A stretch of DNA of 64,000 nt from assembly GCA_964646755.1 (NCBI GenBank), contig CAZYIE010000001.1, positions 4,160-68,159 of the forward strand. Direction: 5' to 3'. Source of the stretch: an uncultured Smithella sp. GTDB taxonomy: Bacteria; Desulfobacterota; Syntrophia; Syntrophales; Smithellaceae. Below, one piece after another: positions 3,601 to 5,706 of the stretch; positions within the stretch are counted from its first letter, which is position 1, and every line of letters begins with the position of its first letter. The notes beneath the pieces are model-generated. The model was not told where the DNA came from. It worked only from the letters and a program-made list of their open reading frames with translations, and searched no databases. The position numbers and the translations under genes were made by a program.

Positions 3601-5706
3601 ATGAGTCTATTCGATCTCAATATTGAAACGGTTTTAGAGCATTGGGAATGTGAACATGGACTTCGTGAGATCATTGCCAACGCCCTTGATGAACGTACGC
3701 TAACCAGCACTCCGCCGATCAGCATCGCGAAGGATGATCAGGGGCGCTGGCATATTCGCGATTTTGGCCGTGGCATCAGAATCAAGCACTTCACGCTAAA
3801 TGAGAATCTGGAGAAGGTTGGTGCAGACTGTGTCATCGGCAAGTTTGGTGTCGGCCTCAAAGACGCCCTTGCGACCCTTGATCGACATCACGCCAAGGTT
3901 TCGATCAGTTCCCAGCACGGCGTTTTCACACTGACAAAAGCCGCCAAGCATAACTTTGACGGAATCACCACGCTTCACATTTCGCACGAACCCGGAGACC
4001 AGACGATCAGAGGTACAGACGTCATACTCACTAACATTCCTGATACTGACATGACAAAAGCAAAGTCAATGTTCCTCTGTTTCCGGGAGCATCGTGTTCT
4101 GGAATCCACACCATTTGGCCAGATCATCGAAGCCGTGCCATCAGGAGCAGAGGTCTTCATCAATGGTGTGTGGGTCAACGCGGAACCCGCTTTCCTTTTC
4201 TCCTACAACGTAACCAGCCTGACCGATTCGATGAGGAAAGCTCTCAATCGTGAGAGAGTCAACGTCGGCAGATCGGTCTACGCGGATCGCCTACGCCAGA
4301 TTCTCAAATGCGCAACTGCAGCGACCGTCCTGCAGCCGCTTGCCGCCGCATATTCAAGCAGGGACAAAGGAGTACTGACGGAGGAACTCGGATGGATTGA
4401 TATCGCGCACAAAGCATTGAATGAATTGGCAAGAACGCAGAACGTTGTCGTTGTTTCGCAGACGGAGATCAAGGCGCGGCCAGAGCTTGTTGAAGACATC
4501 AAGCGTGATGGTCGCCAGATCGTCTTGCTCACAGACCGAGAGAAGCAACGTGCTGACCAACAGGCCGAACAAGGCAAAGCGCCGTTTCAGACGCTTAGCA
4601 CATGGATTCAGTCCGTTAACGACAGTTTCCAGTACCAGTTTGTGGATGAAAGCGAGTTCACCGGAAACGAGGCCGAAGTGTGGCAAAGACGAAATCAGAT
4701 ACTTGGGTTAGTCGGCCTTCGTCCAAACGCCATCCCGCTTATTCGCGTTTCCGAAACGATTTGCACATCGGCAGACGGGACCACCGGTACATGGGACAGC
4801 AAACTCAACGCCATTGTTGTCAAGCGCACGCAGCTGCGTTCACTTCCAACATTTGCGGGGACATTACTTCACGAGTTGGCTCACGCCATCACTGGCGCAG
4901 TGGACTGCACGCGATTTTTTGAGAACACTCTCACCGAGTATATCGGGAAGGTTGCGGCCACGGCCTTATCAGGCGTTACGCCAATTGTTGATCATGCCGA
5001 TGAGCCAAACAACAAACCTAGCCCTTCCGCGCCAGAAACACCCGTCTTACTTGGTGGCATAGCAGTTGTCCCAGTGGAGTCACGAGATGATTTTACTACA
5101 AAAACCTTAGACTCTTTTGAATCCACAACATCCGACGATAAGAAACAAGCAAGAGAAGATGAAGTCTTGGAAGTGAAAGCCATCTATGAGAATTGGGGAG
5201 TTTTATCAAGCGTAGTAACCGGTACTCTTGATTTATATATATCGGAAATAAACCTTTTTCCGCTGCTGACGCCGGAAGAGGAATTCAAACTGGCTGTGCG
5301 TTTGAAGAAGAACAACGATATGGCGGCGGCCGAAACACTGATTAATTCCAATTTACGTTTTGTGGTAAAGATTGCCCATGAATACCGCAATTACGGTTTT
5401 AAACTGGCCGATCTGATCCAGGAAGGCAATATCGGCCTGAGTCATGCTGTGAAAAAATTCAATCCCTACAAGGGCTACCGGCTAATATCTTATGCCGTCT
5501 GGTGGATTCGAGCCTACATTCAAAATTATCTGATTAAGTCCTGGCGCACTGTTAAAATCGGAACCACACAGCCGCAGAGAAAATTGTTTTTCAAATTGAG
5601 CCAGGCGAAAAAGCAATTGGAGACTCTTTCGCAAAAAAATCCGGAATTTGCCGAAATCGCTGAATCGCTGGGCGTAATAAGGTCCCGAAGTAGCCGAGAT
5701 GGATAA
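3601..5706 (+). CDS. Chimeric ORF: GHKL (Bergerat-fold, MORC/MutL-like) ATPase plus an HExxH metallopeptidase-like region, read in frame into a sigma-32 fragment
   Basis: GHKL motifs occur in order: EIIANALD (nt 3667-3690), DFGRG (3760-3774), [14 protein letters not shown] lies at nt 4870-4884. An RpoH-like sequence starts around aa 534. About 370 bp of AT-rich DNA lies upstream. Confidence 0.6.

Follow-up and report, generated by a model that had tools for sequence, protein, structure and literature searches.

An in-frame chimera of a PF25856 GHKL-zincin gene and an rpoH fragment in an uncultured Smithella sp., probably a rearrangement accident in the larB-larE interval

The closest described relatives of the gene considered here encode proteins of the PF25856 (MPN635_N) family that end in a KTSC domain, which is regarded as a DNA-binding domain (PMC9503650). 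These proteins, annotated as 'KTSC domain-containing protein' or 'ATP-binding protein' (P0001, P0007, P0014), carry the motifs of a GHKL ATPase, an HExxH...D...R..E signature and a linker, and are encoded by single genes with no conserved partner. We analyzed an aberrant member of this family in a 64,000-nucleotide (nt) stretch of DNA from an uncultured Smithella sp. (GenBank assembly GCA_964646755.1, contig CAZYIE010000001.1, positions 4,160 to 68,159 of the forward strand; hereafter, the window). There, a 701-amino-acid (aa) open reading frame (ORF) at 3601..5706 on the plus strand, with an ATG start and zero internal stops, is colinear with and 67-90% identical to these proteins over aa 1-495 and shares their motifs and linker, but the 60-aa KTSC tail and the native stop are missing, and the frame continues instead through a filler into a fragment of rpoH, the gene for sigma-32. 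It shares region 1.2, regions 2.1-2.4 and the RpoH box with ordinary Smithellaceae RpoH (281 aa; P0121, P0133), whereas the start codon, region 3.2 and region 4 are missing from the window piece, which also differs by an insertion of 1 nt and by private substitutions at invariant sites. We regard the chimera not as a new kind of system but as an aberrant representative of a family that is catalogued and uncharacterized.

We favor, at a probability of about 0.7, an origin of the chimera by accidental rearrangement within a hot spot for cargo, with a 495-aa core that is intact and probably functional and a sigma tail that is decaying. A description made from the letters alone (hereafter, the original prediction) had reported one uninterrupted ORF with GHKL, HExxH and sigma-32 parts, and this was borne out at 3601..5706. 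At the DNA level, the ORF is a mosaic of three segments (A, 3562-5082; B, 5083-5210; C, 5211-5703), of which A holds the GHKL ATPase, a middle domain, the HExxH zincin domain and the native linker. The features of the mosaic are the following:

3562..5082, plus strand: segment A, a PF25856 (MPN635_N) gene with 39 nt of its own leader and ribosome-binding site (RBS) and codons 1-495
3655..3921, plus strand: Bergerat ATP-binding fold, aa 19-107
4723..4971, plus strand: minimal zincin-like domain, aa ~375-457
5082..5083, plus strand: breakpoint 1, ...CCAGTGGAGTCA / CGAGATGATTTT, where intact relatives read TCGAATATTTCC... into KTSC
5083..5210, plus strand: segment B, a filler of 128 nt, GC content 0.375, aa 496-537
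5211..5703, plus strand: segment C, the rpoH fragment, codons 5 to ~168 of 281
5678, plus strand: 1-nt insertion, T in GTAA[T]AAGG compared with a real rpoH (blastn against locus L002)
5704..6186, plus strand: segment D, AT-rich, holding a small ORF at 5779-5907

Over exactly 3562-5082, the window is 89.5% identical at the nucleotide level to a groundwater-metagenome contig (L102); the corresponding values for two further loci are 86.3% (L103) and 84.6% (L008). The protein is colinear with its 555-aa relatives through Ser495 and unrelated to them beyond this residue. L102 and the window diverge after GTGGAGTCA, which ends in Ser495, L102 continuing with TCGAATATTTCC into KTSC and the window with CGAGATGATTTT. 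In relatives the KTSC domain spans aa 493-550 (start at aa 493 in P0001), so that the break lies within ~3 residues of a domain boundary, where KTSC begins. In line with this, homology stops at nt 5082 and Pfam detected no KTSC domain (PF13619) in the window protein. The native gene had been proposed to be about 470-500 aa long and to have lost its stop; the native product is instead 555 aa long with a KTSC end, and its last ~60 codons were replaced at 5082/5083. Likewise, the P/S/D-rich linker noted earlier is present but consists of two things, namely the native family linker (aa ~458-495) and the translation of the filler (aa 496-537).

Segment B showed no similarity to GHKL loci, to rpoH loci or to rpoH upstream regions, and no protein homologue, Pfam match or metagenome-scan match was found for it. 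Its derivation from diverged rpoH upstream DNA was ruled out on the same grounds. It is open in one of six frames, the one that links A to C, for which the chance in shuffled sequence is 0.034, a figure to be read knowing that the ORF had been picked out for its length.

Segment C is an internal rpoH piece. Against nt 13-503 of an 846-nt rpoH (L001/L002) its identity is 90.2%, and against the RpoH of Smithellaceae 88-95% at the aa and 86-90% at the nt level. It starts at rpoH codon 5, has MKLP replaced by VLSS and no start codon of its own. Pfam recognized Sigma70_r1_2 (aa 543-571) and Sigma70_r2 (aa 580-650), but neither Sigma70_r3 nor Sigma70_r4, in the window protein. The RpoH model TIGR02392 aligned aa 542-694 with its positions 2-153 of 270 and, because the piece is truncated, scored 213.6 bits against a cutoff of 323.1. 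Regions 1.2-2.4, as originally described, are indeed present; the rpoH stretch, however, goes on through the RpoH box into part of region 3, ending before region 4. Through the T insertion at 5678, the last 9 codons are out of frame and end at the TAA stop at 5704-5706. Four private substitutions lie in the in-frame homologous stretch (I614S, S649R, I650T and A658P); I614 presumably aligns with a region 2.2 residue that sigma-70 genetics has implicated in core binding. In relatives the real rpoH stands in the order dacZ-rpoH-tetR, a context that segment C does not share, and no second rpoH or other paralogous DNA was found elsewhere in the window. The synonymous divergence (dS) between segment C and the rpoH of HGW-Deltaproteobacteria-12 is 0.86, and since this lies inside the range of the window lar genes against the same metagenome-assembled genome (MAG; 0.80-1.33), the scrap probably derives from the host lineage's own rpoH. 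In its sequence it is plainly an internal fragment in decay.

No protein with both halves was found when the 701-aa sequence was searched with phmmer against 1.84 billion representative proteins, which were clustered at 50% identity, so that a fused relative could hide inside a cluster. The matches cover either aa 1 to ~480 or aa 538-692, never both, and those on the RpoH side are ordinary 281-aa Smithellaceae sigma-32 proteins. Among the best 120 relatives of each half in 90%-cluster lists there was likewise none that covers the two. Further, the junction and filler peptides were not found in a metagenome scan, and the exact 701-aa product is not in public annotation.

The two parts of the ORF also differ in selective constraint. 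The GHKL part has no private change at 82 columns that are invariant in 66 other family members, and, counted within the KTSC clade, 2 such changes, compared with 0-11 in the other members. It contains neither a stop nor an indel over 1482 nt. Its ratio of nonsynonymous to synonymous rates (omega) against L008 is 0.18, pairs of intact genes giving 0.10-0.24; with L103 as outgroup, nonsynonymous and synonymous changes (N:S) are 22:55 on the window branch and 11:22 on that of L102 (p 0.65). The rpoH part, by contrast, deviates privately at 8 columns that do not vary among 115 full-length RpoHs (maximum of 1 and median of 0 in the others). All of its nonsynonymous divergence from the nearest rpoH falls on the window branch: a distance decomposition gave 8N:14S for the window and 0N:21S for that rpoH, and parsimony 4:10 and 0:17 (p 0.03). 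The GHKL-zincin part is under the same constraint as its intact relatives, whereas the rpoH part is relaxed. Of the two readings offered in the original prediction, the genuine fusion tethering a sigma domain found no support, as no homologue joins the halves and the sigma part is relaxed. The other, an acquired GHKL-HExxH gene reading into a dead rpoH piece, held in outline, while the native length, the manner of stop loss and the 128-nt filler differ from what had been envisaged.

Segment A was assigned to the PF25856 / MPN635_N GHKL-zincin family by homology to proteins with precomputed PF25856 annotation: the window protein matches the 555-aa P0001 at E 1e-296, and matches to the ~460-aa core range from E 1e-296 to 1e-136 and are colinear over aa 1-457/495. 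The Bergerat motifs EIIANALD (E23/N27/D30), DFGRG (D54-G58) and GKFGVGLKD (G80-D88) are invariant or nearly so in an alignment of 67 family members. In the same 67 sequences E23, D30, D54, G56, G58, G80-G85, H424, E425, H428, D435, R438 and E441 are invariant, and all are kept in the window. In Pfam, the HATPase_c match at aa 19-107 is sub-threshold (20.5 bits against a cutoff of 26.4, E 7e-4), HATPase_c_3 is likewise under its cutoff, and no HisKA or H-box was detected in the window protein. The presence of Bergerat motifs without HisKA was thus confirmed. A two-component sensor histidine kinase was rejected on the missing HisKA, the position of the ATPase fold at the extreme N-terminus and the structural neighbors HtpG, GyrB/ParE and MutL.

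In an AlphaFold2 model of aa 1-495 (pLDDT 84, pTM 0.67), residues 464-481 form a disordered linker. With this model, Foldseek retrieved from the PDB, at a probability of 1.0, HtpG (E 1e-7), ParE/GyrB and MutL, with TM-scores of only 0.2-0.25. The core falls clearly in the GHKL superfamily, and the fold search suggests the GHL class, which upholds at superfamily level the earlier call of a MORC/MutL/Hsp90-type ATPase. Phage T4 RIIA-like and other phage GHKL proteins (BFVD A0A3G3BWI8; phrog_6077) likewise begin with a GHKL ATPase and continue with other domains. Matches to viral structure models had E-values from 1e-21 to 1e-8, the best being uncharacterized phage proteins (E 1e-21, TMq 0.56) alongside many RIIA proteins, and phrog_6077 matched at E 6e-20 over aa 12-205. 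The likeness to these phage proteins covers the GHKL part, with TM-scores of only ~0.3 for RIIA.

The HExxH motif is H424-E425-x-x-H428 (nt 4870-4884). A model of the isolated domain (pLDDT 88) matched only zincins in the PDB, all weakly (E 0.04-0.2): the minigluzincins selecase, abylysin and jannalysin at the top, then M48/M56 and PprI. With the minigluzincins, M48/M56 and IrrE/PprI the modeled domain shares a three-stranded sheet, the HExxH helix and a following helix with an acidic residue. The TM-scores with these zincins are 0.4-0.55, the candidates for a third ligand are D435 or E441, and the domain is fused to an ATPase and not free-standing. In relatives, Pfam gave only sub-threshold matches to WLM, SprT-like and DUF6782 in this region. 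The zincin signature claimed at the outset is accordingly an invariant motif whose predicted structure has zincins as its top PDB matches, at scores that keep the assignment weak.

No model of PADLOC-DB v2, which includes Tiamat, matched aa 1-495 at E <= 1, so that the suggested relation to Tiamat was dropped. For the GHKL-HExxH module an NCBIfam scan gave a sub-threshold sacsin-like ATP-binding match only. With no PADLOC model and no literature description of a GHKL+HExxH defense system found, the architecture cannot be assigned to a named system, as had been stated. The only PADLOC match was obtained through the sigma part (aa 556-643), to MzaA, the sigma-70-family component of the MZA anti-phage system, a large defense protein with a sigma region-2-like domain. 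Membership (NF041931) was rejected, as the match reached 84.5 bits against a cutoff of 800, covered positions 466-589 of 726 and left the N-terminal 495 aa unmatched; a literature search on MzaA turned up only unrelated papers.

Homologues of aa 1-530 numbered more than 3600 at E <= 0.001 among the candidates scored. The ~26 closest relatives are 554-557 aa long, 67-90% identical and consist of PF25856 and a C-terminal KTSC, whereas most of the family are ~460-aa cores with PF25856 alone, at ~50% identity. With the whole chimera as query, and thus with sigma-only matches included, ~1000 representatives at 50% identity were obtained at E <= 1e-30. Homologues had been expected to end around 470-500 aa or in a sigma domain; the closest ones run on to 554-557 aa with KTSC, the majority do end as a ~460-aa core, and none is listed with a sigma domain. 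The family occurs in bacteria and archaea, on plasmids, integrative and conjugative elements, proviral contigs and defense-type islands. After the core, longer members carry TPR, LRR, Sel1 or Bles03 domains, and others KTSC, FGE-sulfatase, GYF_2 or a zinc ribbon (members and loci noted for their domains or neighbors are P0254, P0262, P0264, P0256, P0261, P0271, P0030, P0025 and P0066, and L093, L095, L097 and L103).

The genes beside family members differ from case to case, but many of them have to do with DNA, mobility or defense. They comprise HIRAN with an SMC-like ATPase beside a TrwC relaxase, an overlapping Fpg/Nei glycosylase, and type I HsdR with DUF3800; other neighbors are PIN, HepT, an integrase fragment and a SIR2_2 protein. 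A member on a conjugative plasmid lies beside IS110, CoiA and SbcCD. Family members were found on 12 PLSDB plasmids and on 14 IMG/VR contigs (L104-L117; 39-53% identity), on several of the latter 1-2 kb from the contig end, which suggests prophage-edge cargo or flanking host DNA. The small ORFs 5' of three intact homologues show no relationship among themselves or with the window, so that there is no operon partner, and a search of the literature returned nothing on MPN635 function. The layout resembles that of NLR/STAND-type sensors. An ATP-driven GHKL switch may control a small metallopeptidase, while a swappable C-terminal module would recognize DNA or a ligand. The family as a whole is catalogued yet uncharacterized, and has no PADLOC model.

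The GC content is 0.52 in the GHKL part, 0.41-0.45 in the rpoH part and 0.443 in the whole window; the GHKL part is thus richer in GC than its flanks, as the original prediction had estimated by hand (~0.55). Because of this difference, and because the named members of the closest clade come from a Kiritimatiellae MAG (P0007) and a Verrucomicrobiota MAG (P0014), a foreign origin of the segment A gene is supported. Horizontal acquisition, proposed earlier, also agrees with the absence of the gene from the lar loci of six relatives. Since most family members are core-only proteins of ~460 aa, the retained 495 aa contain a complete core, probably still a functioning ATP-driven switch coupled to a small metallopeptidase, both activities being predicted.

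Taken in sequence, the events would have been as follows. A single-gene mobile cargo, encoding a 555-aa GHKL ATPase-zincin-KTSC protein, would have been acquired horizontally by a Smithellaceae genome and have landed between larB and larE, just 3' of the intergenic element described below. Through an illegitimate rearrangement at a later time, the last ~60 codons, that is, the putative DNA-binding KTSC domain and the stop, would have been lost, and Ser495 joined to the 128-nt filler and this to 492 nt from the interior of the host lineage's rpoH. The joins would have been in frame by chance, giving an ORF of 701 codons, with the 1-nt insertion near the rpoH end supplying the stop and the sigma-32-derived tail riding along as a decaying passenger. 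Several observations weigh against this account. The filler is open only in the A-C frame (~0.034, to be multiplied by 1/3 for in-frame entry into rpoH), and the break falls at a domain boundary, in the very slot where the family naturally swaps binding domains. Further, neutral evolution of the GHKL part over the lifetime of the scrap would be expected to leave no more than ~2 changes at invariant sites (P(0) = 0.12) and ~3 indels (P(0) = 0.05). Owing to this small expected damage, the proposition that the GHKL part is still functional is only moderately supported.

The same limited power, P(0) = 0.05-0.12, speaks for the main alternative, which we consider unlikely and in which the whole ORF is a dead pseudogene, the loss of KTSC having inactivated the protein and its intact look reflecting a recent event. 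The closest clade always carries KTSC, the exact protein is missing from all public annotation, and the surrounding region is a junkyard, with an apparently frameshifted small ORF, an orphan antitoxin, the start-less rpoH scrap and possibly a 5' remnant of a second BrnT gene. On the other hand, tail-less cores make up most of the family, which makes the retained part a complete unit; the 1482 nt of the GHKL part are undamaged, while the adjacent 492 nt of rpoH scrap have an indel and at least 4 invariant-site changes; and N:S on the window branch equals that of intact relatives. Less probable still is a neo-functional fusion, in which sigma-32 regions 1.2-3 would have been recruited into the C-terminal slot as a tether to the RNA polymerase core or as an 'integrated decoy'. 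Interchangeable modules do occupy this slot and the replacement sits at the domain boundary; the filler leaves the frame open, for which the chance was ~0.03, omega on the rpoH branch is ~0.18 and not 1, and a sigma-like domain occurs in the named defense protein MzaA. However, if the greater part of the branch is older than the duplication, a branch-wide omega below 1 is what one would expect; the fusion is a singleton among the 1.84 billion representatives with its junction missing from the metagenome scan; and the sigma part is frameshifted at its 3' end and has changed privately where 115 RpoHs are invariant, among other places in region 2.2 (I614S).

The more specific notion that the sigma-32 fragment serves as an 'integrated decoy' or targeting module of a conflict-type GHKL-zincin switch, drawn by analogy, is a long shot. 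If true, the captured piece would sense invaders that attack sigma-32 or RNA polymerase, or would bring the protease to RNA polymerase, as a bacterial counterpart to the integrated decoys found in plant NLR proteins. Least credible of all is an assembly or sequencing artefact joining unrelated reads. The closest relatives are all MAGs, and neither the exact product nor the neighboring LarC is on record; but the rpoH piece is short and internal, is bordered at either end by DNA other than rpoH and has private substitutions and an indel of its own, whereas a mis-join would be followed by the rest of the genuine rpoH locus (dacZ-rpoH-tetR). To the left and right of the cargo, the native lar-locus sequence stands in the order expected. 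Read as a one-off rearrangement, the chimera counsels caution against reading function into long in-frame fusions at insertion hot spots, and the PF25856/MPN635_N family and the Smithellaceae larB-larE hot spot are more promising leads than the chimera itself.

The features that surround the mosaic are the following:

463-1686: larC (Pfam)
1689..2447, plus strand: larB (AIR-carboxylase-type; Pfam AIRC), left edge of the variable interval
2717-3010, plus strand: BrnT toxin (PF04365 BrnT_toxin, E 4e-26)
2970-3227, plus strand: putative ORF in the BrnA position, overlapping brnT, with no Pfam or NCBIfam match
3448..3564, plus strand: conserved intergenic element, core GCCTTGCATCTAAACCnTTTTGAACAG at 3458-3484
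6187..6504, plus strand: HI1420-type antitoxin with a helix-turn-helix (PF21716, E 4e-30)
6609-7433, plus strand: larE, native sequence resuming at ~6587 (blastn against L013-L018: 6587-6604)

The BrnT toxin, the HI1420-type antitoxin and lar genes on both sides were thus found where they had been claimed to lie, as were ~370 bp of AT-rich DNA ahead of the gene (3228-3600, 373 bp, GC 0.33-0.37). LarE, LarB and LarC are 72-92% identical overall to Smithella and Smithellaceae MAGs, with aa identities to Smithellaceae MAGs of 87-92% for LarB and 72-84% for LarE; the best LarE match among GTDB species representatives is 84%, which makes the host a member of Smithellaceae whose species has no representative there. 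The spacing between larB and larE is ~10, 200, 350, 800, 2100 and 2200 nt in six relatives and 4160 nt in the window. Cargo in the relatives includes a 454-aa ORF (L013), lipoprotein-like ORFs (L016) and a pentapeptide-repeat protein (L014), while L017 has the gap of ~10 nt. BrnT/A, the GHKL gene and the HI1420 antitoxin were all absent from the lar loci of the six relatives. Because the cargo differs in every relative, the larB-larE spacer in Smithellaceae is a recurrent insertion hot spot with lineage-specific cargo. BrnT and the ORF in the BrnA position form a separate cargo insertion to the left of the conserved element.

This element, single-copy in the window, was also located in L014 (9293-9396), L015 (9880-9924), L018 (539-583) and L016 (7888-7923 and 2689-2729, the second copy ~5 kb away). 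In L015 and L018 it precedes larE by 65-80 nt, the normal arrangement, and in L014 and the window it stands directly 5' of the cargo, in the window ~40-110 nt upstream of the ATG of the chimera. The acquired gene begins at 3562, and homology to L014 ends at 3564. Judging from its position, the element may be a promoter or operator, from which the chimera could be expressed, or a recombination or insertion site. No Rfam match was obtained in 2400-6700, a range that includes the element. Promoter and terminator scans did not exceed shuffled expectation, with weak -35/-10 sequences at 3527-3555 only and no plus-strand terminator between 3600 and 6600, and a search for mobile-element end repeats gave only short, chance-level repeats.

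Downstream of the chimera, segment D showed no similarity to the lar loci of relatives. Its small ORF at 5779-5907 has a good RBS, and another frame continues ...GKTIIIASTEGNITVDGHEKTKIGLNVYKKN* to ~5957, on which basis the ORF is tentatively regarded as frameshifted; neither it nor the reconstructed peptide had a Pfam, NCBIfam or PHROG match. The 480 nt ahead of the HI1420-type antitoxin contain no toxin ORF, so that the antitoxin is orphaned, consistent with a decaying cargo region. Finally, an 18-nt near-repeat of the BrnT start was observed 143 nt upstream of brnT (2574-2591 versus 2717-2734, ATGCTTGATTTCGAATGG versus ATGATTGACTTCGAATGG), and a second BrnT gene may have left it behind.

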